Source: Promethearchaeia archaeon (lineage in GTDB: Archaea; Asgardarchaeota; Lokiarchaeia; Sigyniarchaeales; SOKP01). Taken from it: a stretch of 64,000 nt of DNA. Position numbers and translations under genes: made by a program. Position 1 is the stretch's first letter, and the number at the start of each line of letters is the position of its first letter. The notes under the pieces were generated by a model. The model made no database searches. It saw nothing but the letters and a program-made list of their open reading frames with translations, and was not told the origin of the DNA. Where the stretch lies: positions 8,588 through 72,587 of the forward strand of contig JAHQWJ010000148.1 of NCBI GenBank assembly GCA_029856125.1, given 5' to 3'. Shown piece after piece: positions 1-60,739 of the stretch.

Positions 1-704
1 ATTCGTTATTGGCGTTTTTAGCTTTACCTTTAGTTATTATTGTCAGTTATTTATATCGCTTACTTACCGTAGGTTTAATAACTCGATTTTTCTGGAAATT
101 TACTGAATATAGAAGTCCAACGAAGGATGGCGTAATTCCACGAAATATCGGTTCCAAGACCGCTAATTATTACCATATTAGATCTTTTATGCTAAAATAC
201 GGAAAAAACGCATTTATGAAAGGAGTCTTCCCATGGTTAGCTAATTTTTACTTTAATTTTGTGGGTTCTGGTATCATTAAGAAAGGCTCCACATTAGAAG
301 AATCAGTTGTTACAGATAAAAATATAAATGTTGGAAGGAATTGCTACATCGGTGTTAATTCTGCATTATCATCTCACTTTGTAGAAGGAATATTTGGCAA
401 TATCGTCTTTTTCGAAATCAAATTGGGAGAAAACACCACATTAGGAGGATTTAACAATATTGCTCCTGGATGTGAACTAAGTGATAATTCATATCTTTTA
501 CCAATAGCGGCCGCGACAAAACATAATAAAACTAAAGGGAATAATTATTACTTCGGGATGCCATTCCGACGCATATTTAAGAAGAAAATTATGGATTACT
601 TAAAAGTGAGCGAAGGGGATTTAGATCGAGCTGAGGAATTAAGAGCTAAACAAGAGAATGAAAAATTAAAAAGACAGTTAAAAGCTACAAATACTGAGAA
701 CTAA
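1..704 (+). CDS. Membrane-anchored hexapeptide-repeat (LbH) protein, paralog 1; 5' end cut by the window edge
   Basis: The frame is open to position 1. The product aligns with the C-terminal ~230 aa of the next two ORFs ('RSPTKDGVIPRNI', 'KYGKNAFMKG', hexapeptide-like 'VGRNCYIGVNSALSSHFVEGIFGNIVFFEIKLGENTTLGG'). The TTG at 9 is unlikely to be the true start. Confidence 0.6.
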   Translation, partial: SLLAFLALPLVIIVSYLYRLLTVGLITRFFWKFTEYRSPTKDGVIPRNIGSKTANYYHIRSFMLKYGKNAFMKGVFPWLANFYFNFVGSGIIKKGSTLEESVVTDKNINVGRNCYIGVNSALSSHFVEGIFGNIVFFEIKLGENTTLGGFNNIAPGCELSDNSYLLPIAAATKHNKTKGNNYYFGMPFRRIFKKKIMDYLKVSEGDLDRAEELRAKQENEKLKRQLKATNTEN

Positions 705-721
705 AAATTAAATAAAGAGGA

Positions 722-1630
722 ATGTATAAGATTTTGATTGAAGATATAAGTGATTCTGGATCGGATATTCCACGGGAATTAGTTCACTTCCAGTATCATA
801 AATACATGGCATTTTTCTTTGCTATCTATGTTGGTTCTTATTTAGTGCCAGTCATAGTTCTAATGTTTTACCTCTTCCTAATCTTAAAACCCTTGTTCTT
901 TGCAGTAGAAAGTTTTATTATTATCCTTACGAGTTTTGATTCTTTAATAGTTTTTTTAACCATTCCACTTGTGGTTATTATATTCTATTTATCTCACCTA
1001 TTTTTCTTAGGAGTGTTTACCCGAATCTTATGGAGGTACACTGAAAAGAAGAGTCCTACGAAGGACGGTATAATTCCTCGCGATATACAGTCAAAAACGG
1101 CAGATTTTTACCACTACAGAAGTTTCATGATTAAATACGGAAAGAACGCTTTCATGAAAGGATTTTTCCCTTGGTTGGTTAATTGGTTTCTTAATTTTGT
1201 GGGTGCTGGTGTTGTAGATAAAGGCACAACATTTGAAGAATCGGTACTTAACGATAGAAATATAATCGTAGGGAAAAATTGCTATATAGGTGTAAACTCC
1301 ACGCTATGTACTCACGTAGTAGAGGGGATCTTCGGAAATATTATTTACTTTAAAATTGTATTAGGGGAAAATGTCACCCTTGGCGGATTCAATCAAATTG
1401 GACCCGGGGGCGATTTAAAAGAAAATTCTTTCTTATTACCAATGGCCGCCGCAACAAAATTTAATACAACGAAGGGAGATAATTACTACTTCGGGATGCC
1501 ATTACGTCGCATATTTAAGAAGAAAATTATGAATTATTTAAAATTAAGCGAAGATGATTTATCTCGATCTGAAGAATTAAGAGTTAGACGAGAAGAAGAA
1601 AAATTAGGAAAACACAATAAAGTGAACTAA
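722..1630 (+). CDS. Membrane-anchored hexapeptide-repeat (LbH) protein, paralog 2
   Basis: 302 aa. It has an acidic N-terminus, long hydrophobic helices ('FFFAIYVGSYLVPVIVLMFYLFLIL', 'LTIPLVVIIFYLSHLFFLGVF'), a [LIV]-G-x4 run and a K/E-rich tail. AAGAGGA lies just upstream of the ATG. Confidence 0.65.
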   Translation: MYKILIEDISDSGSDIPRELVHFQYHKYMAFFFAIYVGSYLVPVIVLMFYLFLILKPLFFAVESFIIILTSFDSLIVFLTIPLVVIIFYLSHLFFLGVFTRILWRYTEKKSPTKDGIIPRDIQSKTADFYHYRSFMIKYGKNAFMKGFFPWLVNWFLNFVGAGVVDKGTTFEESVLNDRNIIVGKNCYIGVNSTLCTHVVEGIFGNIIYFKIVLGENVTLGGFNQIGPGGDLKENSFLLPMAAATKFNTTKGDNYYFGMPLRRIFKKKIMNYLKLSEDDLSRSEELRVRREEEKLGKHNKVN

Positions 1631-1668
1631 GAAAAATTTAGATAAAATAAAGAGGAATGTAGTAGATT

Positions 1669-2589
1669 TTGATTGAAGACACAAGTGATTCTGGACCTGA
1701 ACTTCGAAAGGAAATTGTTCAATTCCAATATCAGAAATATATAGCTTTCTTCTTTTTTATTTATGTAGGGTCTTATTTAGCGCCAGTCATAGCTCTAATG
1801 TTCTACCTTTTCTTAGTATTAAAACCCTTATTTTTAGAAGTAGATAACTTTATTGTTATCCTTACGAGTCTTGATTCATTAATAATTTTTTTAACAATTC
1901 CACTTGTGGTCGTTGGCTTCTATTTAACACACCTATTTTTCTTAGGAGTTTTTACAAGAATTTCATGGAAATTTACAGAGAAAAGAAGCCCATCAAAAGA
2001 TGGAATAATTCCTCGCAATATCGCTTCTAAAACCGCAGATTATTACCACTATAGAAGTTTTATGATTAAATACGGAAAGAATACTTTCATGAAAGGAATT
2101 TTTCCTTGGCTGGCAAACTGGTTTTTTAATTTTGTAGGTGCTTGTGTTATTGATAAAGGCACAACATTTGAAGAATCTGTAAGTAATGATCGAAATATTG
2201 AAGTCGGAAGAAATTGTTATATTGGAGTGAATTCGGCATTAGCATCTCATGTTGTTGAAGGTGTTTTTGGTAACATCGTCTATTTTAAAGTAAAAGCAAG
2301 AGATAATGTTACGTTTAGTGGTTTTAACGTTGTAGCTCCAGGGTGCGAGTTAAAAGATGATACTTACTTATTGCCAATGGCTGCAGCAACAAAATTTAAC
2401 ACAACTAAGGGGAATAATTTCTATTATGGTATGCCTTTTAGACGGATCTTCAAGAAGAAACTAATAGATTACCTAAAAGTAAGTGAAGATGATTTGAACA
2501 GAGCAGAAGAACTAAGAATTAAGCAAGTAAACAAGAAACTGAACAGTTCGAATAAAGAAGAAATAAAAAGTAGAGAAAAATTAAATTAA
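1669..2589 (+). CDS. Membrane-anchored hexapeptide-repeat (LbH) protein, paralog 3 (TTG start)
   Basis: 306 aa, co-linear with paralog 2. The position homologous to the paralog 2 ATG (1657) is followed by two in-frame TAG codons, so the ORF can only start at TTG 1669 or nearby. Confidence 0.6.
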   Translation: MIEDTSDSGPELRKEIVQFQYQKYIAFFFFIYVGSYLAPVIALMFYLFLVLKPLFLEVDNFIVILTSLDSLIIFLTIPLVVVGFYLTHLFFLGVFTRISWKFTEKRSPSKDGIIPRNIASKTADYYHYRSFMIKYGKNTFMKGIFPWLANWFFNFVGACVIDKGTTFEESVSNDRNIEVGRNCYIGVNSALASHVVEGVFGNIVYFKVKARDNVTFSGFNVVAPGCELKDDTYLLPMAAATKFNTTKGNNFYYGMPFRRIFKKKLIDYLKVSEDDLNRAEELRIKQVNKKLNSSNKEEIKSREKLN

Positions 2590-2607
2590 AATCATATGTG
2601 AAATAAA

Positions 2608-3522
2608 ATGACAGAAGAAGAAAAAGACAAGCAAGATATTGTTAAGGAAAATGATGAGACAGATGATGATTCAGATTTCGTTATAGACTTTACAACAAGT
2701 TCAGCAATAAATAAAGTAACTTTGAAATTTTTAGTTGTGTATATCCCAATATTTTGGTTTAGTGGTTTAGTAGTAGCAACTCTATGGTATGGATACACAG
2801 TAAGTCTAGTTCCTTGGATCATCAAATTATTATTTTTACCGTTATTATTGTTATTCTTTTCGTTTCTTTTCATATTTAGTTGCTTGTTCTTCAGTAAATT
2901 ATTCCTTATATTTATTAATCTTATTCACCTCCCTAAAGAAGGGATTTTCCGCACTGATTCGGGTAACCCTGACTTTGAGTTTTGGCGATTTAGAACTGAG
3001 ATAAAGAAGATTACTTTGTGGCTGATAAGAAATTGGCCTCTACCGTGGATTGATGTAATAGCTTTCCGCTGGTTTGGAATAAGGATGGATTTTTCAAGCC
3101 ATTTAAACGACGCATGGTGCGACGCAGAATTCATTTCTTTTGGAAAAAACGTGACTATCGGCCAAGGCGCGGCTATTATGAGCTCAATGGTTGTAGGTAA
3201 TTACCTTATCATTAAAACGATCAGATTTGATGATTATTCGCTCATAGGAGGTCAGAGCACTATCGCCCCAGGAACGCATTTTGGAGAAGATACAGTGCTC
3301 GGTGCTGTTTCTGTAACAACCCTTAATCAAGAATTAGAATCTGGATGGATCTATTCTGGAATCCCCGCAAGAAAATTAAAACCTAACAAATACGCTGAAA
3401 TGCGGAGGGATATTATTCATAAAGTAGATGTTGACGAAGAAGAAGCAGTCGAAACCGAGCACGAAGTTAATATTGACGAAGATAAAAAGCACCTAATTAA
3501 AAAAAAGAGCGAGGATGATTGA
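2608..3522 (+). CDS. Membrane-anchored hexapeptide-repeat (LbH) protein, subfamily B, paralog 4
   Basis: 304 aa. It has an acidic N-terminus, hydrophobic helices, 'LPKEGIFRTDSGNPDFEFWRFR', the hexapeptide run 'FGKNVTIGQGAAIMSSMVVGNYLIIKTIRFDDYSLIGGQSTIAPGTHFGEDTVLGAVS' and an acidic/basic tail. Confidence 0.65.
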   Translation: MTEEEKDKQDIVKENDETDDDSDFVIDFTTSSAINKVTLKFLVVYIPIFWFSGLVVATLWYGYTVSLVPWIIKLLFLPLLLLFFSFLFIFSCLFFSKLFLIFINLIHLPKEGIFRTDSGNPDFEFWRFRTEIKKITLWLIRNWPLPWIDVIAFRWFGIRMDFSSHLNDAWCDAEFISFGKNVTIGQGAAIMSSMVVGNYLIIKTIRFDDYSLIGGQSTIAPGTHFGEDTVLGAVSVTTLNQELESGWIYSGIPARKLKPNKYAEMRRDIIHKVDVDEEEAVETEHEVNIDEDKKHLIKKKSEDD

Positions 3523-4420
3523 GATGAGCGTTCCTAATTCTATGCGTATTGGTCCTTTCTGTGCCTCGGTCTTAGTTAAGAAAAAATACTTGATAGCCTA
3601 CATTTTTTTGATTTGGATAAGCATCCTTCCCGCTATTTTAGAAATTTGGTGGTACTGGCAGATGTTATGGTACGACCCTCGGCCACTCCATTTCTACGTG
3701 TTCCTGCCCCTTTATTTGATAGTAATTTATGTTACAACTGTCTTTGCAGCCATCTTTTCCGCAAAAGTTATGTTAATGATCGCGAGTATTTTCCATAAGC
3801 CTAAAGAAGGAGTATTTCTTCGAGATCCTTCTGATAGGGATTATCGTTATTGGAGCCTTAGAAACACGATAAAGAAATGGCCTACTTGGCTCGCACATAA
3901 GTTTCCATTTCCCTTCTTAGATAATATTTGCTTTAAAGTGTTTGGCGTAAAAACTAAATTTTCTAATTCCCTTTTTGAAGGCTGGGTAGATACAGAATTT
4001 ATAGAGTTCGGTAAAAATGTAGTTATTGGACAAGGTGCTATAGTTCAGTCTTCGGTTATTATAGGGAATTTTTTAATTATTAGAAAAACAGTTATCGAAG
4101 AAAATGTCAGAGTTGGAGCACACGTGATTATTATGCCAGGAACTCACATAGGAAAAAACTGTATTTTAAATACGTGGTCTTCTACGATGGTAGGACAGGA
4201 ATTAGAAGAAGGTTGGATATACAATGGAGGTCCGGCAAAAAAATTTAAGAGAAATAGGTTTTTTGAAGATATCCCAATTGAAAAACTTACTAAATCTATT
4301 GGAGACATGGGCGAATTATTAAAGAAATACGATGACCAAAGAGTCGCTAGAGTAATGAAGAAGCGGAGATCGATTAAGAGAAAAGATAAAGAAGAAAAAG
4401 ACGCGGAAGAAAAAGAATAA
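3515..4420 (+). CDS. Membrane-anchored hexapeptide-repeat (LbH) protein, subfamily B, paralog 5
   Basis: 301 aa, paralog of 2608-3522 ('KPKEGVFLRDPSDRDYRYWSLR', 'FGKNVVIGQGAIVQSSVIIGNFLII'). The ATG at 3515 overlaps the upstream stop by 8 nt. An in-frame ATG at 3524 is an alternative start. Confidence 0.65.
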   Translation: MIEMSVPNSMRIGPFCASVLVKKKYLIAYIFLIWISILPAILEIWWYWQMLWYDPRPLHFYVFLPLYLIVIYVTTVFAAIFSAKVMLMIASIFHKPKEGVFLRDPSDRDYRYWSLRNTIKKWPTWLAHKFPFPFLDNICFKVFGVKTKFSNSLFEGWVDTEFIEFGKNVVIGQGAIVQSSVIIGNFLIIRKTVIEENVRVGAHVIIMPGTHIGKNCILNTWSSTMVGQELEEGWIYNGGPAKKFKRNRFFEDIPIEKLTKSIGDMGELLKKYDDQRVARVMKKRRSIKRKDKEEKDAEEKE

Positions 4421-4422
4421 AC

Positions 4423-5211
4423 ATGAAGATCGGTTACGTACAAACTTCTCCAATTTTTGGTGAAATAACTCAAAACTTTAAACAAGTTGAAGATTTACTA
4501 GGAAATGCTAAAGGAGATTTGCTTGTTTTACCCGAACTATTCGCAATAGGATACACATTTATATCTAAAGAAGAAGCAGAATCTATGGCTGAAACTACTG
4601 AAGGAAAAACTGCCAATTTTTTAATAGGGTTAGCTAAAAAAACGGGTGCTGTGGTTGTAGGCGGATTCATAGAAAAAGATGGTAAACAAATTTATAATTC
4701 GTCTATGATAGTATCTGGTAGCGAAGTTCTTGGGACTTATCGGAAACTCCACCTTTATTACAAAGAAAAACTGTGGTTTTCTCCGGGGAACAAACCTTTA
4801 GAAATATTTGAAGTAAAAAAAACAAAGGTAGGAATCATGATTTGTTTCGATTGGTTCTTTCCTGAGACTCTCCGAAGTCTTGCTCTTCTTGGAGCAGACA
4901 TTATAGCTCACCCCGCTAACTTAGTGCTTCCGTATTGCCAAAGGGCGATGACAACTCGTTGTTTGGTAAATCGAGTTTTCGCTGTAACATGTAATAGGAT
5001 TGGAAACGAAGCAAGGGGAGAAGATAATTTTGTATTTACGGGGGGTAGTCAAATTACTTCTTATAAAGGCGAAGTTCTCTCATCCGCCCCAAAAGATAAA
5101 CCACATATTGACTTTGTTGAAATAGATGTTAAACAAGCGAGAGATAAAAACCTTAACAAATATAATAATGTATTTAGTGATAGAAGAACCGAGTTTTATT
5201 CTCTTGAATAA
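4423..5211 (+). CDS. Carbon-nitrogen hydrolase (nitrilase-superfamily amidase)
   Basis: 262 aa. Candidate Glu-Lys-Cys triad context: 'LPELF', 'YRKLHLY', 'GIMICFDWFFPE'. It starts 2 nt after the preceding stop. Confidence 0.8.
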   Translation: MKIGYVQTSPIFGEITQNFKQVEDLLGNAKGDLLVLPELFAIGYTFISKEEAESMAETTEGKTANFLIGLAKKTGAVVVGGFIEKDGKQIYNSSMIVSGSEVLGTYRKLHLYYKEKLWFSPGNKPLEIFEVKKTKVGIMICFDWFFPETLRSLALLGADIIAHPANLVLPYCQRAMTTRCLVNRVFAVTCNRIGNEARGEDNFVFTGGSQITSYKGEVLSSAPKDKPHIDFVEIDVKQARDKNLNKYNNVFSDRRTEFYSLE

Positions 5212-5227
5212 TAGATAGAGTGATGTT

Positions 5228-6235
5228 ATGAAAGCGGCTGTATTCGACGGGCAAGATATCTCCATTAAGGAAGTACCGATACCAAGACTTGAAGATTCTC
5301 AAGTTTTAATTCAAATAAAAGCGTCAGGAATATGTGGGACCGATATAGCTATAGCAAAAGGGGATTTACCAACGCCAACGCCGATCATTTTAGGTCACGA
5401 GTTTGCAGGTGAAGTTATAGAAGTCGGTAAGAAAATTAACTCAAACTGGGAAGGAAAACATGTCACATCCGAAATTAATAGCAACATCGATTTCAGCTGT
5501 TATTACTGTCAACGAAATATTTTCTCTCAATGCCTATCGCGCAAAGCCTTAGGTATAGATATTAATGGCTCCTTTGCTGAATACATAGTTGTTGAGCCAT
5601 ATATGCTTCACGAAATACCGAGAAAGATTTCTTACAAGGAAGCAACATTTATAGAACCTTTAGCAGCAGCGTATCAAACATTTGAAATGATGCCATTAGC
5701 AGATGAAGACAAAATTATCGCAATCTATGGGCTTGGAAAATTAGGTTTATTACTAGCCCAAGTGGCCTTAGTTAAAGGATTGGATGTAATAGCAGTTGAT
5801 GGTTCAGATAAAAAGCTTTCTATGGCTGAAAAGTATGGTGCAAAGCAACTAATTAACCGTTTTGAGGTAGAAAATATAAGTGATGAAATCAAAGGTTCAA
5901 CTGATAATCTTGGAGCAGATATTGTCGTAGATACTACAGGCAATCCAGAAGCTCTTATAGATATCGTTGCTTCGTGTAAAACGCGAGGTAAAATCCACAT
6001 TAAAAGTACTCATGGATTAAGAACTCCAATCAATCTTACTGATATAGTAGTTCGAGAAATCACCGTTTACAGTAGTAGATGTGGTCCATTTGATAAAGCA
6101 ATTGAGGGACTAAGCTCTGGAGATATTAAAGTTAAAAGTTTAGTCTCCAAAATGTATGACTTAGAAAAAATTAGAGAAGCATTTGCTGCTTACGATGAAG
6201 ATCCAGATTTTATAAAAGCAGTTATCATAATTTAG
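5228..6235 (+). CDS. Zn-dependent medium-chain alcohol/threonine dehydrogenase family protein
   Basis: 335 aa with 'GICGTDIAIAKGD', 'GHEFAGEV' and a Rossmann-type 'IYGLGKLGLL'. Confidence 0.8.
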   Translation: MKAAVFDGQDISIKEVPIPRLEDSQVLIQIKASGICGTDIAIAKGDLPTPTPIILGHEFAGEVIEVGKKINSNWEGKHVTSEINSNIDFSCYYCQRNIFSQCLSRKALGIDINGSFAEYIVVEPYMLHEIPRKISYKEATFIEPLAAAYQTFEMMPLADEDKIIAIYGLGKLGLLLAQVALVKGLDVIAVDGSDKKLSMAEKYGAKQLINRFEVENISDEIKGSTDNLGADIVVDTTGNPEALIDIVASCKTRGKIHIKSTHGLRTPINLTDIVVREITVYSSRCGPFDKAIEGLSSGDIKVKSLVSKMYDLEKIREAFAAYDEDPDFIKAVIII

Positions 6236-6620
6236 TAAATAATACCTGATTTTCCAAGAATCTAACAATTTTTTTACATGTTTGCATCTGGTAGTTTTTA
6301 TTAGGATAAAATACTTCTGGTCTCGGGCAGTCTTGGTCTAAAGTACAGTGTCCTTTATCAGGATCATAAATCAATGGGTAAAAACGGCACCCTTGTGGCC
6401 TCACATCATATATTGTACACAATTTAGCAGCACTATCAAAGAACACACAATATCCTTTAACATTTATTAATTGATTAAATCCTTCTTCGGTTCTTCGAAT
6501 AAAACTGGTTATTTTTAAATGTTTAGGGTTATTTTTTTTAATACGAGCAATATCCTTACTAGATAAGAGCATCTCCGTTTCAATACAGCATTTTCCACAA
6601 TCCTTACATATATTTTTCAT
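6225..6620 (-). CDS. YkgJ-like Cys-cluster (zinc/iron-chelating) protein
   Basis: 131 aa with N-terminal 'CKDCGKCC' plus later Cys residues, typical of the CxxCxxCC family. Confidence 0.55.
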   Translation of the reverse strand: MKNICKDCGKCCIETEMLLSSKDIARIKKNNPKHLKITSFIRRTEEGFNQLINVKGYCVFFDSAAKLCTIYDVRPQGCRFYPLIYDPDKGHCTLDQDCPRPEVFYPNKNYQMQTCKKIVRFLENQVLFTKL

Positions 6621-6801: not shown

Positions 6802-7923
6802 ATGTCTATTTTAAAACAACTTATGGAGGCAACTCGACTTACCAATCCTTGGATTACTAGCTGGAAAAATGAAGGAAAAAAAGTATTAGGATATTTTTGT
6901 TCGTATATTCCTGAAGAGATTATCTACGCTGCAAATATTTTGCCGATTAGGGTAAGAGCAAGAAAGTGTACTGATACACCAATGGCGGATGCCTATTTAA
7001 GTTCTACCATGTGTAGTTATACGAGATGTTGTCTTGAGCAAGCCAATAGAAAAGAATTTGGATATCTTGATGGAATTGTTTCGTGTAATTGCTGCGACCA
7101 AGTTAGGAGACTTTACGATAATATAAGATATAAGGCCCCGTTTCCTTATCATTACATCATGGGAGTTCCCGGTAATATCAGTGAAACTACATTAGATTGG
7201 TTTAAACATGAACTCTCTAAATTTAAAGTAAGTATTGAGAAAAATTTCAATACTAGAATTACTGATGAAAAGTTAGGTGATACGATTAGATTATATAATA
7301 ATTCTCGTAAATTGCTTAAAGAGATATATGAGCTCAGAAAACATGATTCCCCTCCTATTACAGGTAGTGATGTACTAAATATCATTTCAGCAGGAATCTC
7401 TATTCCAAGAAACGAGTTCAATGCTTTATTAACACAGCAACTTGAGGAGCTTAAAAGTAAAGAGGGTATTTCCGATCATAAATCGAGAATAATGGTAATC
7501 GGTAGTATGCTTGATGAGCCGGAATATATACAAATTATTGAACATCTCGGCGGATTAGTAGTTACTGATTCTACATGTATAGGAACTCGATATTTTTGGG
7601 ATATGGTTGATGAAACTTCAAGTCCTCTTGATGCACTTGGAGAACGTTATCTATCGAAAATCTCATGTCCTCGTATGACTGGTGAACATTTGAAAAGAGC
7701 GCAATTTATGATGGATATGATTAAAGATTTTAATGTAGATGGAGTAATTTTTCAAAGAATGAAGTTTTGTGCGATATGGTGGGCTGAAATTTTCATGTTA
7801 AGGGACAAATTAAAAGAAGAAGGTATTCCATTTCTTGATTTAGAAAGAGAATATGTGTTAAGCGGTGCTGGAGCTATGAAAACTCGTGTCCAAACCTTTA
7901 TAGAAATTTTAGAAGCGAGGTGA
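6802..7923 (+). CDS. 2-hydroxyacyl-CoA dehydratase / benzoyl-CoA reductase BcrBC-family subunit (smaller subunit)
   Basis: 373 aa with 'GKKVLGYFCSYIPEEIIYAANILPIRV' and conserved Cys residues. GGAGGT precedes the ATG. Paralog of 52070-53218. Confidence 0.75.
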   Translation: MSILKQLMEATRLTNPWITSWKNEGKKVLGYFCSYIPEEIIYAANILPIRVRARKCTDTPMADAYLSSTMCSYTRCCLEQANRKEFGYLDGIVSCNCCDQVRRLYDNIRYKAPFPYHYIMGVPGNISETTLDWFKHELSKFKVSIEKNFNTRITDEKLGDTIRLYNNSRKLLKEIYELRKHDSPPITGSDVLNIISAGISIPRNEFNALLTQQLEELKSKEGISDHKSRIMVIGSMLDEPEYIQIIEHLGGLVVTDSTCIGTRYFWDMVDETSSPLDALGERYLSKISCPRMTGEHLKRAQFMMDMIKDFNVDGVIFQRMKFCAIWWAEIFMLRDKLKEEGIPFLDLEREYVLSGAGAMKTRVQTFIEILEAR

Positions 7924-7928
7924 AAAAT

Positions 7929-9248
7929 ATGGATATAGAAGTGTATAATAAATATAAAAAACTTGGAAGAGGAAATTGGGGAAAAGATCTTACTATGTGG
8001 AAAATGATGTATTTGGGATTGTTAAATCAAAATAAAGATGAAGAATTTACACCAGTTTTCGAATTATTATTTAATATCTTCCTTGACCTCCCTAAGGCAA
8101 GGAAAGAAGGAAAACTTGTTATAATGCATTCATTTAATTATGGTCCTGAATTATTTCACGCAATGAACTTAGCACCTCTCATGCAGGAATTATTTAGTGT
8201 TGGATTAGCCCCGTTACATCTAAATGAACCTTATATAGATTTTAGCAATCAAATTGGATATGGAGACAATCCAACAATCTGTAACGCTCAAAGGCCATTG
8301 ATTGGTTCATTTCTGCAAGGTGCCTCGCCAATTCCTGATTTATTATTCTTTCTTTCAACGCCTTGTAATTCTCTTGCTATGACTTATCAAGTTTTTGAAC
8401 ACATAGCAAAAATTCCTGCACATAGTATAGATGTTCCTTATTGGGCTTATGAACACAAAGATAACGAATTTTATGATGAGAATACTATTTCATATATGGT
8501 AAAGCAAGTAAAAGATTTAATACTATGGTTAGAAAAAGAAACAAAGCAGAAGTTAAATCCTGAAAATCTCCAAGAAACAATGAAAAATGTGAATCAATCA
8601 AGGGAATATATATTAGAGTTTAACGAACTTTTAAAAACTGTTCCTTGCCCAGTGCCGAGCCGAGCAGGTTTTGGAAACTTTCTTTCCATGGTGACTCGTG
8701 GCGGCACTGATGATGCTGTTAAAGCTACCAAATGGTTACGTGATTCTGCTTTAGAGAATGTTAGGAATGGGATAGGAGGTGTACCTGATGAGAAGATTAG
8801 AATTGCTTGGCCTTATACTCATGTCTTCTTTGATGCTGACCTTCTCATTTGGTTAGAAGAAACATTCAATGCAGTGGTGATTATGGATATACTTGGATAC
8901 TACCAAGTCCTACCTCACGATATATCTACACTCGAAAAATGTTATGAGAATTTAGCTAAGGGAACATTAGATTTCTCAATGGTAGGAACGTGTCGTGGCC
9001 CAATTGAGTTTTATATCGAATTTTTATTAAATTATGTAAAAGAATATAAAATAGATTGTGTGATTATGCCAATGCAATTTGCGTGTAAACATGCATATGC
9101 AATAGCTCGAGTTGCTTCTGAAGCTGTGCGAGAACAAACAGGAATTCCGACTTTAATTTTTGGTTGTGATCCGTACGATTCACGAGAAGTAACTTCAGAT
9201 GCTATAAGAGAAAGGATTTCAGAATTTCTGACTCAAGTAGTTTTATAA
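7929..9248 (+). CDS. 2-hydroxyacyl-CoA dehydratase family subunit (larger subunit)
   Basis: About 440 aa, paralog of 50734-52023. The ORF track starts at GTG 7920, but ATG 7929 has GAGGTG about 5 nt upstream. Confidence 0.7.
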   Translation: MDIEVYNKYKKLGRGNWGKDLTMWKMMYLGLLNQNKDEEFTPVFELLFNIFLDLPKARKEGKLVIMHSFNYGPELFHAMNLAPLMQELFSVGLAPLHLNEPYIDFSNQIGYGDNPTICNAQRPLIGSFLQGASPIPDLLFFLSTPCNSLAMTYQVFEHIAKIPAHSIDVPYWAYEHKDNEFYDENTISYMVKQVKDLILWLEKETKQKLNPENLQETMKNVNQSREYILEFNELLKTVPCPVPSRAGFGNFLSMVTRGGTDDAVKATKWLRDSALENVRNGIGGVPDEKIRIAWPYTHVFFDADLLIWLEETFNAVVIMDILGYYQVLPHDISTLEKCYENLAKGTLDFSMVGTCRGPIEFYIEFLLNYVKEYKIDCVIMPMQFACKHAYAIARVASEAVREQTGIPTLIFGCDPYDSREVTSDAIRERISEFLTQVVL

Positions 9249-9266
9249 AAGAGGTTTATTATAGAA

Positions 9267-10037
9267 TTGTTAGTAGCTGGATGTGATGTTGGTTCATTAA
9301 CAGGAAAAGCAGTAATATTACAGGATGGTGAAATTTTATGTTATAGTATTGTTCCTACAACACCCAAACCTGAGAAGACTGCTCAAAATGCAATGGATGC
9401 GGCACTTCAAAAAAAAAACTTATCTCTGAATGATATTGAATTCATTGTAGGGACGGGATATGGTAGAATAAAAATTCCTTTTGCCACGTCTCAAATATCA
9501 GAATTGACATGTCATGGTAAAGGCGCTCACTCTTTAATCCCATCAATTAGAACAATAATTGATGTGGGCGGTCAGGATTGTAAGGTAATTAAAGTGGATA
9601 AGAACGGAAAGATTCTGGATTTTGCCATGAATGATAAGTGTGCCGCAGGAACGGGACGATTTTTGGAAGTGATGGCTAGAACTCTGGAACTCAAGCTTGA
9701 AGAGCTCGGCCCTATATCTTTAGAGTCAAAGAATCAGGCTAAAATAACTGCTCAATGTAGCGTTTTTGCTGAAACAGAGGTAGTTAGTCTTATGGCTGAT
9801 GGTATAGAAGTATCAGACATAGTTGCGGGGATTCATGACGCTGTAGCCTCTAGAATTATGTCTCTTGTGTATAGAGTTGGCCTTGAAGAAGATTTGACAA
9901 TAACTGGAGGAGTAGCAAAGAATATAGGAGTTGTAACCTATTTAGAGAAAAGGCTGGAGGTCACATCTAAAAAATTACCGGTTGATCCTCAAATAATAGG
10001 AGCGTTAGGAGCTGCATTAACAGCAAAAGAACAATAA
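9267..10037 (+). CDS. Dehydratase activase (BcrAD/BadFG/HgdC-family ATPase)
   Basis: 256 aa with 'GCDVGSLTGKAV', 'DVGGQDCKVIKV' and 'DKCAAGTGRFLEVMA' (ASKHA fold with a bridging-cluster Cys). TTG start with AGAGGT upstream. Confidence 0.85.
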   Translation: MLVAGCDVGSLTGKAVILQDGEILCYSIVPTTPKPEKTAQNAMDAALQKKNLSLNDIEFIVGTGYGRIKIPFATSQISELTCHGKGAHSLIPSIRTIIDVGGQDCKVIKVDKNGKILDFAMNDKCAAGTGRFLEVMARTLELKLEELGPISLESKNQAKITAQCSVFAETEVVSLMADGIEVSDIVAGIHDAVASRIMSLVYRVGLEEDLTITGGVAKNIGVVTYLEKRLEVTSKKLPVDPQIIGALGAALTAKEQ

Positions 10038-10089
10038 AAAAAAATTATTTTTTATTTTAATTTTAAGAAAAAATCTATTTATTTCTTTA

Positions 10090-11349
10090 TCATTTAATCG
10101 TTTTCTCTATTAGCTGAGAAATATCGTATGCCTTGATTTCATCATTTTTAATATTAGTCTTGAATTGATTTAGACAAAATGGGCAAGATGAGACTATTGC
10201 TGAGGCATCAGTATCTTTAGCTTCTTCAATACGCTCACGAGCAGCGAATTCTGACAAGTCTTTAAATGCAGATCTCACTCCACCACCAGAACCACAACAC
10301 CATGCGTTATGCTTATTTCGATTCATCTCAACGAGTTCAATCCCCGGAATTTCTTCTAAAACAGCTCTGGGTTCTTTATACATTCCCATATGACGACCTA
10401 TATGGCAAGGATCATGATACGTTATTTTCATATTAACATTTTGTTTAAATTTTATTGTCCCATTTTTTAAGTTTCTTAGTATAAACTCGGGTAAATGCAA
10501 AACTTCAATTCCATGCTTAATTCCAAACTTTTTGGGATAAACTTCCTTTAACGCTCTATAACATCCAGCACAGGAGGTTATTATCTTTTCTACCCCCGAA
10601 TTCGTAAACATCTCAACATTACCTTCAGCTATTTTTCTTGCATAATCCACTTGACCCGTCATATATACAGGAGAACCACAACAACTTTCGTTTTCAAGAA
10701 TCTTAAAGTCAATACCAAGTGTATTCAAGATTCTAACGGTAGAAATAGCAATTTCTTTTTCTCGATAACTCGATGTACAACCAACAAAGTATGCTAATTT
10801 AGCGTTTGGAGATTGGAAAGCATCTGAAGGAAACCAATCTTGTCGACTTTCATGTTTTTCTCCATAAGGATTATGAAGATCTTCTACATATTTCGTATAC
10901 TGTTTTTGTTCGGGCATTGGACCATATCCCGCTCGAACGGCTTCTTCTCTCATCGCCATTAACCATTCGCCAGCATAAGTGTGAAGCTCTGGTATTTGAC
11001 ATTGCTGTGTGCATGCTAAACATAAAGAACATTCGTAAAAAATCCGAGCTAGATTATTAGTCCATTTTAGTTTATTTGACATTAAACCCCAAGAAAGCAA
11101 ATTTTTTCCTCCCAAATAATAAGCTTCAAATTGCCCAAATTCACCTGAGGGACAAACCCGAGCCCAATTAACATCTTGAAAAACAGTTCTACAGGTTCCA
11201 CATTTTCCACATTGGTATATTATATCCTTATAATGTTCAATTTCTTTATGTCTATCTATCTCATGATCTTCTTGTTTCATATCTATCTTTTCTATACCCG
11301 TACCTCTTATATATCTGATTTTCTTTGCCATACTAACTACCCCAACCAT
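10090..11349 (-). CDS. (Fe-S)-binding CCG-domain oxidoreductase, GlcF/HdrD-like
   Basis: 419 aa. Two ferredoxin-type motifs ('CGKCGTCRTV..CP', 'CSLCLACTQQC') and two CCG-type motifs ('CCGS', 'CCGSGGG'). An alternative ATG at 11331 sits 1 nt after the upstream stop. Confidence 0.75.
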   Translation of the reverse strand: MVGVVSMAKKIRYIRGTGIEKIDMKQEDHEIDRHKEIEHYKDIIYQCGKCGTCRTVFQDVNWARVCPSGEFGQFEAYYLGGKNLLSWGLMSNKLKWTNNLARIFYECSLCLACTQQCQIPELHTYAGEWLMAMREEAVRAGYGPMPEQKQYTKYVEDLHNPYGEKHESRQDWFPSDAFQSPNAKLAYFVGCTSSYREKEIAISTVRILNTLGIDFKILENESCCGSPVYMTGQVDYARKIAEGNVEMFTNSGVEKIITSCAGCYRALKEVYPKKFGIKHGIEVLHLPEFILRNLKNGTIKFKQNVNMKITYHDPCHIGRHMGMYKEPRAVLEEIPGIELVEMNRNKHNAWCCGSGGGVRSAFKDLSEFAARERIEEAKDTDASAIVSSCPFCLNQFKTNIKNDEIKAYDISQLIEKTIK

Positions 11350-12754
11350 GTCCTGGATTCATTATCGCATTTGGATCCAAAAGCTTTTTTATTTTTTTGA
11401 TCAATTCGTTAGTAGCTGGTAATGTCTTTTCCTCATATACCTCATGAGCCCAAAGTGGAGCCTTATACATTACAACACCATCAATTGATTGAACTTCTTC
11501 ATGAATTTCCTTTAATACTTGGCGAGCAGATTCAATTTCCTCGGGATCGTCTTTATTAAAATTTATGTTAGTTCGAGCAACACAATAATGACCGCCAAAT
11601 AAAATTCGGGAGTAAAATTGCGGAGTACGTCCGTATTTTAGAGCTTTTTCTCTTGCTAGAGCGTAAAATTTTGCAATGTCTCGAGTTGAACAATAACTCC
11701 CAATCCATTGGCCCCCACCTCCCCTAGAGAAATTCCAGCACCCCCATAATTGAATTGGTATCGCATCAAGAAGAGTTGTATCAATTCCTTGGGGTTCAAT
11801 AAGCCCACCTTCTTTTAAGATGGCTTCAATTGCTTCGCATTGAGCTTCATGTTGTTTTTGGGTATAGGCTTGTGTAGTAATAATTCCTGCGAAATCTGGT
11901 AATTTTTTTTCTAAGGGATCTATAGGAATCTTATTTTCATTTGCAGCGAATGAGGATTGAAGCCACCCATAATTTTGAATTACAAGATCACATATACCTA
12001 AACCCACCTTAGAAAGCTTAAGCATAACTGGGACTCCATCATCCATAGTTCTCCCCATCACAACATAATTCCTTCGATATGGTAGTTTTGGCCATAATTT
12101 TATAGCCGCTTTAGTCACGATTCCTGTAGTGCCTTCCCAGCCAATGAACAAACCTGCTAAATCAGGTAATGGTTGCCTTCCATACCAGTAATCAGAAAGA
12201 CAACAAGAACCTACTTTCACTAATTCACCCGAACCTAAGACAGCTTCTAAACCATTAATGAATTCTGCTCCTGTTCCACCAAGCATTCCCAAATCAAACA
12301 TACCATAACATAAGCAAGAAGCTACTACCCCTGTTCCGGGTGGTGACCAAGTTACGCCCGCTCTTAAACCAGAATGGTGTTTTTCAAGATATCCTACTAA
12401 ATCGGCCCATGTAGTTCCCCCTTCGACTAAAGCATACATATCATCTTCATTTACTTCAATTATTCGATTCAGCCTTCTCAGGTCAACAACAATTCCTCCC
12501 TTTATTGGAGTAGCAGTAGAACCAAAGTTGATCCCCGAAACCCAAGGTACTAGTGGAATTTTGTGATTATTTGCAATTTTAACGATTTCTTGGACTTCTT
12601 CTGCTGAATTTGGCATTATTACAATATCACATATTCCTTCTGGTTCAGCCGTGATAAAATCGTAGTGATAGAGAAATGTTATTTCAGGTTGATCTGAAAC
12701 GTATTTTTCTCCAACAACTTTTCCTAATTCATTAACTATTTCACTATTAATCAT
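11333..12754 (-). CDS. FAD-linked oxidase, GlcD / D-2-hydroxyacid dehydrogenase-like
   Basis: 473 aa. PCMH-type FAD-binding N-terminus ('IVIMPNSAEEVQEIVKIANNHKIPLVPWVSGINFG') and C-terminal 'LDPNAIMNPG'. Confidence 0.8.
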   Translation of the reverse strand: MINSEIVNELGKVVGEKYVSDQPEITFLYHYDFITAEPEGICDIVIMPNSAEEVQEIVKIANNHKIPLVPWVSGINFGSTATPIKGGIVVDLRRLNRIIEVNEDDMYALVEGGTTWADLVGYLEKHHSGLRAGVTWSPPGTGVVASCLCYGMFDLGMLGGTGAEFINGLEAVLGSGELVKVGSCCLSDYWYGRQPLPDLAGLFIGWEGTTGIVTKAAIKLWPKLPYRRNYVVMGRTMDDGVPVMLKLSKVGLGICDLVIQNYGWLQSSFAANENKIPIDPLEKKLPDFAGIITTQAYTQKQHEAQCEAIEAILKEGGLIEPQGIDTTLLDAIPIQLWGCWNFSRGGGGQWIGSYCSTRDIAKFYALAREKALKYGRTPQFYSRILFGGHYCVARTNINFNKDDPEEIESARQVLKEIHEEVQSIDGVVMYKAPLWAHEVYEEKTLPATNELIKKIKKLLDPNAIMNPGHGWGS

Positions 12755-14634: not shown

Positions 14635-15342
14635 TTATTTGAGAACAAAGTACATTCTCCTATTATTCTTTCCCTTATTTACCGTTTTAGTCATCTCAAT
14701 TTCGCCAATTTCCATGAGACTTTTAACGTGGGTTCCACCGTCTACTTGTTTATCGATGTCTCCGATTTTAACTATGCGGAATTCTTGTAAGTTTTTAGGT
14801 AAGCCAACTGCTAATCTTGCAAGCTCGGGTTCTTCCAGGACAGCGGCTCTAGACATCGTCTCAATAGTGATGGGAAGGTCGTGCTTAATAATTTCGTTAG
14901 CTTCTTCAACAAAGGTCCGCAATTTTTCTGGTGAATAATCCTCCATAGAGAAATCCATTCGTGCTTTGTCTAATTCAATCTGGTTTCCGGTGATTTTAGC
15001 GTTCGTTCTACGATATAGCAGGTTTGAAAGAAGATGACAAGCAGTATGGTATCGCATATATGTATATCGCCTCACCCAATCGATTTCGCACGAAACTAAG
15101 TCTCCTTCTTTTAGTCCCGGTTTTTCTACTTCGTGGCTAATTTCTCCAGAAAATTTACCTACATACACTACCTTGAATTTCTCACCATTTTTGATTATAT
15201 ATCCTTCGTCCCATGGTTGGCCGCCTCCTTTAGGATAAAAGGCGGTTTTATTAAGGACAATGAATTTATCATCTTTCACAGAAATAACTTTTGCATCCCA
15301 CGTCTTTAAATAGGAGTCGTTCATGTATAAAGCTTCAGTCAT
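14635..15342 (-). CDS. alaX: Alanyl-tRNA editing protein AlaX (Ser/Gly-tRNA(Ala) deacylase)
   Basis: 'YMRYHTACHLL' and 'DGGTHV' zinc motifs of the Thr/Ala-tRNA synthetase second additional domain. I prefer the ATG at 15342 ('MTEALYMNDSYLKTWDAKV') over the longer ORF ending at 15405. Confidence 0.75.
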   Translation of the reverse strand: MTEALYMNDSYLKTWDAKVISVKDDKFIVLNKTAFYPKGGGQPWDEGYIIKNGEKFKVVYVGKFSGEISHEVEKPGLKEGDLVSCEIDWVRRYTYMRYHTACHLLSNLLYRRTNAKITGNQIELDKARMDFSMEDYSPEKLRTFVEEANEIIKHDLPITIETMSRAAVLEEPELARLAVGLPKNLQEFRIVKIGDIDKQVDGGTHVKSLMEIGEIEMTKTVNKGKNNRRMYFVLK

Positions 15343-15539
15343 AGAGTATAAAAAAGTAGTTATGCTTATAATTTTGATCTTAAAAAATTTTTGTTTACAA
15401 CGCACAAAATTAACAGAAATGTATACAAAGAAGACCTCTTTAACATTTTTGTATATGTATAATGAATAATTATGCTAAATTTTAAATCCTTTTAAATTTT
15501 TAAGAGAAATAATTAAATAAATTAATTTATCGACAAAAA

Positions 15540-18179: not shown

Positions 18180-18191
18180 CCAAAAAATCTC

Positions 18192-18204
18192 TTTTTTTTT
18201 TTTT
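18192..18204 (+). terminator. Oligo-T tract (13 T), candidate archaeal-type terminator
   Basis: A run of 13 T begins 13 nt after the stop at 18179. Confidence 0.4.
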
Positions 18205-18215
18205 AATTTATTTCA

Positions 18216-18368
18216 TTATTCTTTCTCGTAAAGTTCTCCGGGTTTCGCACCGCAGAAAGCTTCAATCTTTAAGAATTTCATTTCTTTGGAACAATTAGGG
18301 CAAAAAAACTTTCCCGGTTCTTTATTTTCGAAAGAATAACCACATTCTTTGCAAGCTACAGCATTCAT
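18216..18368 (-). CDS. Unannotated 50-aa zinc-ribbon mini-protein
   Basis: Hand translation: MNAVACKECGYSFENKEPGKFFCPNCSKEMKFLKIEAFCGAKPGELYEKE. It has a CxxC...CxxC pair and is below the 60-aa cutoff of the ORF track. Confidence 0.45.
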   Translation of the reverse strand: MNAVACKECGYSFENKEPGKFFCPNCSKEMKFLKIEAFCGAKPGELYEKE

Positions 18369-18611
18369 ATTATTCAAATGAGGAATAGAATTTTAAAATG
18401 TTCTTATTATGAAAAGAAGATGATTCATTTAATTTTATATTGAAAAATAAGGTTTCTTAAGGTTATTACATAATATAAAAGTCAAATCGGTAAAAAGTGA
18501 AAATTTATACCCCTTAACCTTTAGCGAGGTTGTCAACAAACATCTATAATTTTTTATATTTGTTTCATTCTTCAAAGGGTATTTCATTTTATTATCGCAC
18601 AAAGCTCCCTA

Positions 18612-18722
18612 TCACTTAAATCTTAGCGTAAAGAACTTAGTAAATTTTTCACATACATGACAATAATAGTAGCCTTCTTTTGAGCCACTAGCTTTTGTTC
18701 TACAATTAAGACAAAATATCAT
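18612..18722 (-). CDS. Unannotated 36-aa zinc-ribbon mini-protein (tentative)
   Basis: Hand translation: MIFCLNCRTKASGSKEGYYYCHVCEKFTKFFTLRFK, with a CxxC...CxxC pair. Confidence 0.3.
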   Translation of the reverse strand: MIFCLNCRTKASGSKEGYYYCHVCEKFTKFFTLRFK

Positions 18723-18912
18723 TTTAATCACTTATTAAAGCGCTCGATTCGTTTTAAAGCTTCAATTTATAAGATATAGGTGGATAATTGGCTTGATTAA
18801 TATTTAAAAATGTAAGGAATTTAAGGTAAAACTATATATTTTAAAGAATTTATAATAATTCTCAGATATATCATATTATTTTAATACCGAATTATAATAT
18901 CAAGTGTTATAT

Positions 18913-19947
18913 ATGGCAGCTGTGGAATACAAGGGCGAAAAATACGAAGTTAAAGACGGATTTTTAGACCTGGGCCTACTAGAAATTGAAGACATATCTG
19001 ATATTAAAGGATTAGATAAACTTGATATCAAACATTTAGAGCTGAGTTCCAACGAAATTATCGAAATACAAGGTTTAGAAGAGCTTCACAATTTAGAAAT
19101 TCTTAATTGTGGAAGTAATAACCTATCCAAGATATCTGGGTTGGAAGATTTAACAAATTTAGAAGTTCTACATCTAGCGTCTAATCAGATTACCGAAATT
19201 AAGGGACTTGATCAGTTATCTAATTTAAAAGAAATATATCTAAGAGCTAATCAAATAACTCACTTAAAAGGTTTAGATTCTTTAAAATCGCTTCAGAAAT
19301 TAGATTTGTCTTGGAATATGATTGAAAAAATCGAAGGATTCGATAGTTTGGAGAATTTAGAAGTTTTGTGGCTAGCAGGAAATCAGCTCACAACAATCCA
19401 AGGATTGGAAAAGTTGAAAAAATTAAAAGTTTTAAATTTAGCAGGAAACCAAATTTCTGAGATACAAGGACTTGATCATTTAAAAAATGTAAGTGAAATA
19501 TATCTTAACGATAATAAAATACAAGAAATCAAAGGTTTAGAGAATCTTACCGAATTAGACACGCTGTGGATAACAGCAAACCAAATTGAGAAAATCAACA
19601 ACCTTGATAAATGTAAAAACTTACAAGTTCTTAACTTGAAAGATAATAACATTGCTGAAATTAGTGGTTTATATCCGTTAACTAAATTAAATAAACTATT
19701 TTTATCTAGCAATATTATTTCGACGATTAAAGGATTAGAAACCCTCCAAAATTTAGAGACCTTAGATTTAGGGAATAATTATGTTAAAGCTATAAGAGGT
19801 TTAGAATCTTTAATGGTTTTGAAGGATTTGTGGCTTCAGGGAAATGAGATTGACGAAGAATTGCTAGCTCAATTAGGTGGATTGGATTCAGGTGGTTGTG
19901 CCTTAGAACCGTTAAAATTTGTGGAATATTGCCTTGTTAACTTATAG
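18913..19947 (+). CDS. Leucine-rich-repeat protein (SDS22-like 22-residue LRRs), LRR-only
   Basis: About 13 consecutive 'LxxLxxLxLxxNxIxxIxGLexL' units. I prefer the ATG at 18913 over the GTG at 18904. Confidence 0.8.
   Translation: MAAVEYKGEKYEVKDGFLDLGLLEIEDISDIKGLDKLDIKHLELSSNEIIEIQGLEELHNLEILNCGSNNLSKISGLEDLTNLEVLHLASNQITEIKGLDQLSNLKEIYLRANQITHLKGLDSLKSLQKLDLSWNMIEKIEGFDSLENLEVLWLAGNQLTTIQGLEKLKKLKVLNLAGNQISEIQGLDHLKNVSEIYLNDNKIQEIKGLENLTELDTLWITANQIEKINNLDKCKNLQVLNLKDNNIAEISGLYPLTKLNKLFLSSNIISTIKGLETLQNLETLDLGNNYVKAIRGLESLMVLKDLWLQGNEIDEELLAQLGGLDSGGCALEPLKFVEYCLVNL
19021..19860 (+). repeat. 66-nt periodic coding repeat (LRR units)
   Basis: The 'N.I..I.GL' core recurs every 22 codons. 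Confidence 0.7.
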
Positions 19948-57462: not shown

Positions 57463-57594
57463 CATTTAGGGCGATCTTTTGTTTAATAAAAATATACTTT
57501 TTAAACCAATATTTATTGTATTTATATTAGTGCTTTTTATTTATTTTAAAAACATCGAAATTAGTTAAGCATAAAGCACTTGAAGGCATTTAAA

Positions 57595-59955: not shown

Positions 59956-60003
59956 TTTGCCAAAATTAGAAAAATTTTTAGTTTAAGAAAGACTCTAAGA
60001 ATT

Positions 60004-60693: not shown

Positions 60694-60739
60694 AAAAAAT
60701 AGAAAATTTTTTTCCTTGTTCTTTTTATTGATTGTTTCC

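Follow-up and report, generated by a model that had tools for sequence, protein, structure and literature searches.

The left end of a 64,000-nt stretch of DNA from a Promethearchaeia archaeon (GenBank assembly GCA_029856125.1, contig JAHQWJ010000148.1, positions 8,588 to 72,587 of the forward strand; hereafter the window) carries an array of five tandem paralogous genes, each encoding a membrane-anchored protein of the left-handed β-helix (LbH) hexapeptide superfamily. We compared this array with its relatives in archaea and bacteria and with the polymerisation domain of the Pls/PosA-type membrane polymer synthetases, and we describe it here as a split, stand-alone and probably heterotrimeric relative of that domain, which lacks adenylation and thiolation domains and is conserved across Asgard archaea. 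The five paralogs, referred to as units A, B and C, and the genes that follow them are located as follows.

1..704, frame 3-704 (+): unit A copy 1 (A1); the gene is cut by the window edge, leaving 233 of about 303 aa; the loop histidine is kept ('SSHFVEG').
722..1630 (+): unit A copy 2 (A2), 302 aa; acidic N-terminus, transmembrane (TM) hairpin (about aa 28-104), LbH, Lys/Glu-rich tail.
1669..2589 (+): unit A copy 3 (A3), 306 aa; TTG start; 72% identity to A2.
2608..3522 (+): unit B (copy 4), 304 aa; TM hairpin, 'PKEG' motif, Trp/Arg-rich helices, LbH.
3515..4420 (+): unit C (copy 5), 301 aa; TM hairpin, 'HKPKEG', 'WLAHKFPFP', LbH.
4423..5211 (+): C-N hydrolase of the nitrilase superfamily, 262 aa; Pfam CN_hydrolase, 130.6 bits.
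5228..6235 (+): Zn-dependent medium-chain dehydrogenase/reductase (MDR) dehydrogenase, 335 aa; resembles threonine, polyol or inosose dehydrogenases.
6225..6620 (-): small CxxCxxCC (PF03692) protein of Zn/Fe-S type, 131 aa; convergent with the MDR dehydrogenase gene.

The initial annotation, made from the DNA letters, had reported five paralogous open reading frames (ORFs) on one strand, and our ORF check bore out both their positions and their spacing: the spacers are 17, 38 and 18 nt, followed by an 8-nt overlap between B and C, and C is separated from the CN-hydrolase gene by 2 nt and the latter from the MDR dehydrogenase gene by 16 nt. Homologs of unit C begin at Met4 of the window protein ('MSVPNSM'). 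Judging from these homologs, Met4 (nt 3524) is probably the true start of unit C, so the 8-nt overlap may instead be a 1-nt spacer. Copies 1-3 are 66-72% identical to one another (E 1e-111 to 1e-171), copies 4 and 5 share 39% identity (E 3e-60), and identity between copies 1-3 and copies 4-5 is about 22% (E 1e-9 to 1e-12). The paralogy of the five copies is unambiguous and far beyond chance. Every complete copy contains two long hydrophobic stretches, at about aa 25-105, followed by a conserved post-membrane block (in A2, 'SPTKDGIIPR...YH.RSFM.KYGKN'), hexapeptide repeats and a charged tail. Against the hexapeptide family PF00132, unit C scored 41.7 bits and passed the Pfam threshold of 27, and copies 1-4 remained below it with 14-23 bits. 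Placement in the LbH superfamily is supported by this score of unit C, by matches to LbH enzymes in the PDB and by the LbH fold of all three unit types in the model of a paralog described below. The N-terminal, non-LbH parts of A, B and C are likewise homologous to one another, with hhalign probabilities of 92-99.8%.

The five copies had been sorted into two subfamilies, copies 1-3 and copies 4-5. Copies 1-3 do form one family, but copies 4 and 5 do not: they belong to two distinct, separately conserved orthologous families, and comparison with other Asgard loci thus separates the array into units of three kinds: A for copies 1-3, B for copy 4 and C for copy 5. A survey of gene neighbourhoods, as the initial annotation had advised, then showed that the triad is conserved well beyond the window. 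Our census comprised 78 species-representative loci, out of 184 matching stretches; the kept loci were all from Asgard archaea, and homologs of the array occur in Lokiarchaeota/Promethearchaeota, Thor-, Hod-, Hermod- and Odinarchaeota. A, B and C were adjacent on one strand at 67 of the 78 loci (86%), and a further 4 (5%) had only the cyclic permutant C-A-B, giving 91% when permutants are included; the remaining loci were mostly on truncated contigs. In 82 instances a single protein of about 610-640 aa combines A with B, against 43 in which the two are split; B and C are encoded separately in 86 of 86 cases. An extra A-B pair lacking its own C was present at 33/78 loci, and three tandem A genes were found only in the lineage of the window (4 loci). 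Outside this lineage the commonest layout was unk546(-), DUF6512(-), dehydrogenase, A-B, CxxCxxCC(-), A-B-C, in which unk546 denotes a 546-aa protein and DUF6512 a membrane protein, both considered below. A second, paralogous Asgard clade encodes natural single-chain C-A-B proteins of 789-805 aa (P0242, P0397, P0398). This clade (loci L045, L048, L062 and L066) also has two-unit C-A proteins of about 525-540 aa. In databases the proteins are annotated as hypothetical or as 'DapH/DapD/GlmU-related', and our literature search, which yielded nothing on TIGR02353 either, found no description of them, of this arrangement or of stand-alone Pls-like modules. The earlier suggestion that the arrangement is undescribed is in keeping with this search; nothing we found bears on its further part, that of a polymer synthetase or aminoacyl-transferase.

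To place the three units in a structural frame, we used the published models of the PosA polymerisation domain and a single-chain relative of the array. In the AlphaFold and RoseTTAFold models of PosA there are six membrane helices, which are bent, and three LbHs of five turns each that pack as in a sugar-nucleotide acyltransferase trimer; a strand and two helices separate each LbH from its TM pair (PMC10522769). AlphaFold2 (AF2) modelling of the single-chain C-A-B protein P0242 (797 aa, from a 136-sequence alignment) gave a mean predicted local distance difference test score (pLDDT) of 90.4 and a predicted TM-score (pTM) of 0.90. The TM helices of the model lie at 22-48/52-88, 285-320/332-370 and 578-604/607-643, and after each pair come one strand, two further helices and the LbH. 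The model indicates that P0242 would fold as one defined assembly with the anatomy of the PosA models, the packing being judged from pTM alone. In a Foldseek search of the PDB, the P0242 model matched best to soluble O-acetyltransferase monomers of the MAT/LacA type, which spanned the soluble part of one unit (about 187 columns, TM-score about 0.55 on the target); this search returned no solved membrane LbH structure of this architecture. Equally, no experimental structure of a Pls polymerisation domain was found in the literature search. The AF2 monomer of copy 5 was of low confidence (pLDDT 59) and was left out of the fold search. For A, B and C taken together, the number of units and their anatomy match the pseudo-trimer of six TM helices and three LbHs expected of Pls, with the window units being separate polypeptides.

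Profile searches point in the same direction. TIGR02353, the model of the Pls/PosA C-terminal region, was the top NCBIfam match of B (36 bits, E 3e-9) and of C (41.9 bits, E 4e-11), and it was also the top match of A+B+C concatenates, reaching 74.8 bits for copies 3, 4 and 5 of the window and 93.4 bits, over three stretches, for the Hermod-type A-B plus C of locus L005. We retrieved six genuine Pls proteins and compared their C-terminal regions by hhalign profile-profile alignment. Asgard A aligned with genuine Pls at probabilities of 94-95%, B at 97.2-97.7% and C at 97.4-97.9%, and several of these alignments covered the whole unit including the TM hairpin. The likeness to the Pls/PosA C-terminal region, which the initial annotation had put forward, is thus upheld by TIGR02353 for B, C and the concatenates, by the 97% hhalign values of B and C, by the bacterial intermediates described below, which bridge the two at 98-99%, and by the fold of P0242. 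The genuine Pls/PosA proteins share with the Asgard set a build of three units, in each of which a TM hairpin leads through a short strand and two helices to an LbH of five turns, and the models of PosA and of P0242 predict that such units pack as a pseudo-trimer on a six-helix bundle. They differ in possessing adenylation and thiolation domains, which the Asgard array has neither in cis nor nearby. Furthermore, the Asgard units are separate genes, with A triplicated in the window; they are about 300 aa long with acidic heads and Lys/Glu tails, whereas Pls/PosA units are about 235 aa; and the host of the array is an archaeon. One Pls/PosA gene, on the Pseudonocardia plasmid pBCI1-2 (L095:2426-6399), is annotated as encoding only 796 aa; some 300 bp upstream of it there is a distinct AMP-binding gene of 428 aa, and this could be either a naturally split adenylation domain or a frameshift.

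An exhaustive profile search with the C family recovered about 2,500 representative clusters, which included stand-alone three-unit proteins lacking adenylation and thiolation domains. P0312 (683 aa), P0342 (680 aa) and P0358 (960 aa, fused to a short-chain dehydrogenase/reductase, SDR) scored 168-184 bits on TIGR02353, compared with at most about 100 bits on generic LbH families, and P0312 aligned over about 90% of its length to plasmid genes annotated as Pls/PosA nonribosomal peptide synthetases (NRPS; E 1e-13 to 1e-19). By hhalign, the Asgard B and C units matched these bacterial stand-alone units at 97.6-98.7% over 147-179 columns, reaching into the second TM helix, and the bacterial units in turn matched genuine Pls units at 98.3-99.4%. 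The bacterial proteins resemble the Asgard proteins in being Pls-C-terminal-like membrane LbH proteins that lack adenylation and thiolation domains, and in their association with a dehydrogenase (an SDR fusion or neighbour there, an MDR neighbour in Asgard archaea). Unlike the Asgard proteins, they are single polypeptides of about 225-aa units, with a 'HYQN' juxtamembrane motif in all three. Their contexts also differ, consisting of GT1, GMC oxidoreductase and dTDP-sugar genes, or of FemAB-like and EamA genes. P0342 heads an apparent operon (L010:10001-18407, on a bacterial 1.34-Mb contig of GCA_964572155.1) with genes for a GT1 (EryCIII-like) glycosyltransferase, a GMC oxidoreductase, an SDR, an RmlA-like nucleotidyltransferase, an RmlD-like protein and a 4,6-dehydratase-like protein, which looks like an uncharacterised glycoconjugate pathway. 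In P0358 (L011:9304-12883) the SDR dehydrogenase is fused to three Pls-like units, and a gene for a soluble hexapeptide transferase precedes it. The flanks of P0312 (L096:1626-6034) hold a FemAB-like gene, a pair of genes for EamA half-transporters of 120 aa and one gene that is glyoxalase/Ble-like. These contexts point to glycoconjugate or lipid-linked chemistry and not to free amino-acid polymerisation, at least in bacteria.

The three unit types differ at the LbH loop that carries the catalytic histidine of MAT and LacA. The A family has a histidine at this position in 130 of 130 sequences (His198 in A2, 'CTHVVEG'), including all three window copies, with the loop consensus 'S/T-H-x-V-E/D/Q-G-I-F-G-N'. 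The same position is serine in all 130 of 130 B sequences (Ser-Ser) and in 96 of 97 C sequences. Elsewhere in the sequence unit C has two invariant histidines, His128 in the juxtamembrane 'WLAHKFPFP' and His203. Judged by alignment, which is also the basis for assigning a catalytic role, a MAT/LacA-type loop histidine is therefore present in unit A alone. A similar asymmetry exists in the relatives: across the six genuine Pls proteins, unit 3 always has the loop 'Q-T/N-H-x-x-E-D' and the loops of units 1 and 2 have no histidine, so that Pls/PosA also conserves the loop histidine in just one of three units, and in the bacterial stand-alone proteins the histidine occurs in unit 2 only.

Since the array runs into the window edge, we used close relatives to determine what lies beyond it. 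Window positions 1-6620 are colinear, at 90.5% nucleotide identity, with contig L008, on which the layout is A-A-A-B-C, CN-hydrolase, dehydrogenase, CxxCxxCC(-). Upstream of the L008 array a 478-bp intergenic region is followed by a divergent class II ribonucleotide reductase (RNR) gene. Compared with the first A gene of L008, which encodes 303 aa, copy 1 of the window is short by about 73 codons (about 220 nt). Because the L008 array is A-A-A-B-C bounded by the divergent RNR gene, the window array most likely consists of exactly five genes by this comparison; the five copies first counted stand, and further copies upstream of them are unlikely. In relatives at a slightly greater distance, the array behind this RNR gene has four members (A-A-B-C).

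We also searched for the activating and carrier functions that accompany Pls/PosA. Adenylation, carrier and ATP-grasp genes were sought upstream of the array in relatives 85-93% identical, and none was found, the divergent RNR gene occupying the place instead. Equally, no adenylation or carrier gene adjoins the arrays in the window, in close relatives or in distant relatives; the initial observation that the units are separate genes with no such gene in view thus extends to the upstream sequence of relatives. Neither AMP-binding nor PP-binding domains were detected in the five array ORFs with Pfam and NCBIfam, and a carrier-domain motif scan of the 64-kb window returned nothing. The sole AMP-binding gene of the window, at 60740-62950 (-), is 56 kb from the array. 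A glycan cluster, which the initial annotation had named as another possible content of the upstream region, was not found either: no standard glycan cluster surrounds the Asgard arrays, and no glycosyltransferase or flippase genes lie nearby.

Taking the results together, we think that the product of the five genes is probably an LbH acyltransferase embedded in the membrane as a heterotrimer, with interchangeable A subunits (three paralogs) and one kind each of B and C. To this assembly each subunit would bring two TM helices in a bent hairpin, then a short strand and a pair of juxtamembrane helices, and on the cytoplasmic side an LbH like that of MAT/LacA, and one A, one B and one C would pack round a pseudo-threefold axis on a six-helix membrane bundle. 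In Pls/PosA the same architecture forms a single 700-aa C-terminal polymerisation domain, here split into three polypeptides. The LbH domains are predicted to lie on the cytoplasmic side, with Lys/Arg-rich residues following the second TM helix ('TEKKSPTKDG', 'HKPKEG'). Because the loop histidine is found in A alone, each heterotrimer would have a single principal active site centred on its A subunit, in which this histidine may act as the general base, equivalent to the histidine of Pls unit 3 and to the MAT/LacA catalytic histidine; B and C, with their invariant serine, would form walls and substrate-binding partners. An activated donor in solution, in the simplest case a CoA thioester, may provide the acyl or aminoacyl group, which the complex would pass on to an acceptor that is associated with the membrane or exported. 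With its three A paralogs the array would yield three isoforms of differing specificity, and the presumably co-transcribed dehydrogenase, the amidase of nitrilase type and the CxxCxxCC protein encoded next to them may make or process the substrate. The assembly and its homology are supported by computation, and it is the donor, the acceptor and the single-site model that we infer. The complex is plausibly Pls-like in the architecture of its working. Because the proteins have no adenylation and thiolation domains and score below the curated cutoff of the family model, the array should not be filed as a member of the Pls/PosA family.

Several results weigh against our reading of the array as a relative of the Pls/PosA polymerisation domain. 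The TIGR02353 scores (36-93 bits) are far under the curated cutoff of 423.1 bits and only modestly above those of generic LbH families, and tested singly the A copies gave 9.6 bits (copy 1) or no match (copies 2 and 3), so that of the profile searches proposed earlier those with copies 4 and 5 returned the expected model and those with single A copies did not. When the LbH was removed, the N-terminal parts of A, B and C had no significant similarity to those of genuine Pls (E 0.09-0.5; reversed controls 0.6-0.9), and their similarity to the bacterial stand-alone units was modest (C, E 5.5e-5; B, 1e-3; A, none); the corresponding comparison of bacterial stand-alone units with Pls gave E 9e-5. 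Given this weak similarity outside the LbH, the TM hairpin may, though less probably, have arisen independently. Nor did A, B and C pair off singly with units 1, 2 and 3 of Pls, all three scoring best against unit 1. As to structure, the modelled chain P0242 belongs to a paralogous set, with about 31-43% identity to the proteins of the window, and is not the window's own A+B+C, and the AF2 monomer of copy 5 is poor at pLDDT 59, as expected for a subunit out of context. The evidence from homology, fusions and models is, moreover, computational.

Other explanations of the array have to be set against this one. The proteins may be ordinary membrane-anchored sugar or glycan O-acetyltransferases of the MAT/LacA/WcaF kind, forming independent homotrimers, with the array the product of simple duplication. 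The soluble part of the units is indeed structurally closest to MAT/LacA monomers, and MAT and LacA share the position of the catalytic loop histidine with unit A; generic LbH matches to WcaF, LacA, MAT and heptaprenylglyceryl-phosphate O-acetyltransferase were also obtained, and one bacterial relative sits in a glycoconjugate-like operon. However, MAT and LacA are soluble homotrimers with three identical acetyl-CoA-using active sites and no TM hairpin, and in the Asgard units a loop histidine confined to A would leave homotrimers of B and of C without it. Homotrimers acting independently would also sit poorly with an A-B-C order fixed in 91% of loci including cyclic permutants, with the frequent A-B fusions and with a single-chain C-A-B protein predicted to fold as one assembly at pTM 0.90. 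The acetyltransferase models themselves gave little: the best equivalog scores all fell below their cutoffs (in brackets), with 29 bits for the WcaF family (192), 16 for LacA (347), 19 for MAT (314) and 18 for EpsC (150), the MAT/LacA hidden Markov models scoring the Asgard units at 10-20 bits against cutoffs above 300. As the Asgard arrays also have no glycosyltransferase or flippase genes nearby, we consider this explanation unlikely. A non-catalytic role is less likely still. Here the LbH heterotrimer would be a structural or assembly module, like the gamma-carbonic-anhydrase (gamma-CA)/CAL heterotrimer on complex I of plants and protists, which is likewise a membrane-attached LbH assembled from paralogs, of which some have degenerate catalytic sites. 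A PDB search with copy 5 matched gamma-CA-like subunits of complex I (E 2e-5), the sequence matches being weak, and two of the three unit types have no catalytic-loop histidine. Yet the A-unit histidine and the polar residues of C (H128, H203) are invariant, the best structural matches are MAT/LacA and not gamma-CAs, and the conserved neighbours are enzymes (dehydrogenase, amidase) and not respiratory subunits. The Asgard units also have neither the Zn-ligand histidine triad pattern nor respiratory-complex neighbours, and they are anchored by an integral TM hairpin where gamma-CA/CAL uses an amphipathic helix.

It is also conceivable, but in our judgement improbable, that the array encodes a genuine split Pls-type polymer synthetase, in which A-B-C would polymerise an amino acid or another amide-linked monomer, activated in trans by a free-standing enzyme in place of fused adenylation and thiolation domains, and extrude the chain through the TM bundle. 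The homology and shared architecture with the Pls/PosA polymerisation domain, and a single-histidine asymmetry like that of Pls unit 3, are as this would predict. The separate adenylation-domain gene of the Pseudonocardia Pls would be a precedent for splitting, the amidase is translationally coupled to C in the window's lineage, and, as the chief support apart from homology, unk546, found at other Asgard loci, has ordered P-loop, 'Y-x-x-S-E' and 'G-D' motifs like those of adenylate-forming enzymes. On the other hand, an adenylation or carrier gene in or beside the array was found neither in the window nor in any relative; unk546 is not in the window, and its match to ANL enzymes is confined to the P-loop and non-significant. 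The bacterial relatives sit with glycosyltransferase, dehydrogenase, dTDP-sugar or FemAB-like/EamA genes and not with NRPS parts, and the TIGR02353 scores are far under cutoff. The heterotrimeric acyltransferase is the explanation that we prefer.

The genes next to the array differ in how widely they are conserved. The CxxCxxCC gene is the most widely conserved neighbour (60/78 loci, 77%), followed by the MDR dehydrogenase gene (43/78, 55%), the DUF6512 membrane protein gene (27/78), unk546 (25/78, absent from the window) and the CN-hydrolase gene (22/78, 28%). Coupling to an amidase, as the initial annotation had it, is thus found in the window's Loki lineage and does not extend to the arrays in general: the CN-hydrolase link is lineage-specific, and the triad with the CxxCxxCC protein and the dehydrogenase is the conserved core. 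In the CN-hydrolase sequence the Glu-Lys-Cys motifs of an amidase are visible, and its score on the archaeal nitrilase NCBIfam model (286 bits) is below the cutoff of 500. unk546 is a soluble protein (L005:2043-3683 (-) and orthologs) adjoining Asgard clusters. Its consensus contains the ordered ANL/GH3-like motifs 'CHTSGTTNS..K', 'NLYVASEIGPF' and 'NID.GD' and a C-terminal 'GKNPKGILKKWP', and it had no Pfam, NCBIfam or PDB match. We rejected its assignment as an adenylate-forming enzyme, the likeness being at the level of motifs alone; hhalign to ANL enzymes aligned the P-loop only (probability <5%, E about 0.01). The DUF6512 protein is a small polytopic membrane protein of 179 aa (L005:3812-4351 (-) and orthologs), the gene for which is always beside that of unk546. 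A gene for an AlaX-like tRNA-editing domain (tRNA-synt_2c + tRNA_SAD) lies in the window at 14635-15405 (-), at L005:10991-11698 (-) and at 28/78 loci in all; in 16 loci it is within about 200 bp downstream of unit C, always convergent. Its recurrence could be plain synteny or an aminoacyl-tRNA hint. Given the invariably convergent orientation, we set it aside as a functional partner and keep it as an observation of synteny. PADLOC returned no match for A, B, C, the CN-hydrolase, the dehydrogenase, the CxxCxxCC protein, unk546 or DUF6512, and membership of a defence system is ruled out at that level.

Synteny with close relatives stops at 6620. Directly past the cluster and outside this synteny, the block at 6802-12754 encodes two HGD-D (2-hydroxyacyl-CoA dehydratase-type) subunits and a BcrAD/BadFG-type activator ATPase, with a CCG/4Fe-4S protein and an FAD-binding oxidase on the opposite strand. 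At 15540-19947 the window encodes an 879-aa right-handed beta-helix/NosD-repeat protein and a 347-aa leucine-rich-repeat protein, which are probably surface or interaction proteins typical of Asgard genomes. The AMP-binding protein mentioned above is a 736-aa protein of the acyl-CoA-synthetase type with a long N-terminal extension, and the region 57580-62950 also encodes, on the strand opposite to it, a 791-aa pyruvate-formate-lyase-like glycyl-radical enzyme; both are positionally unrelated to the LbH array.

The Pls/PosA polymerisation domain lacks a solved structure and a defined mechanism, and a split version with separately expressible subunits and a histidine in A only is a tractable system for dissecting it. 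Pls C-terminal modules lacking adenylation and thiolation domains form a broad family (the roughly 2,500 representative clusters) that has been hidden by annotation as 'hypothetical' or 'DapH/DapD/GlmU-related'. Together with the CxxCxxCC, MDR dehydrogenase, DUF6512 and unk546 genes, the triad belongs to the better conserved of the uncharacterised gene clusters found in Loki-, Thor-, Hod-, Hermod- and Odinarchaeial genomes, and its role is probably to make or alter some component of the membrane or envelope in these archaea, the nearest archaeal lineage to eukaryotes. As a more speculative proposal, to which we give little credence at present, Asgard archaea would almost all possess a heterotrimeric relative of the polymerisation domain that needs no carrier protein and that both builds and exports an amide-linked polymer or an acylated envelope component. 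The monomer would be activated in trans (for example by unk546 or through aminoacyl-tRNA), and exchangeable A subunits would determine the specificity. If true, this reading would add a class to the membrane polymer synthases and reveal a cell-surface pathway of Asgard archaea that had gone unnoticed.

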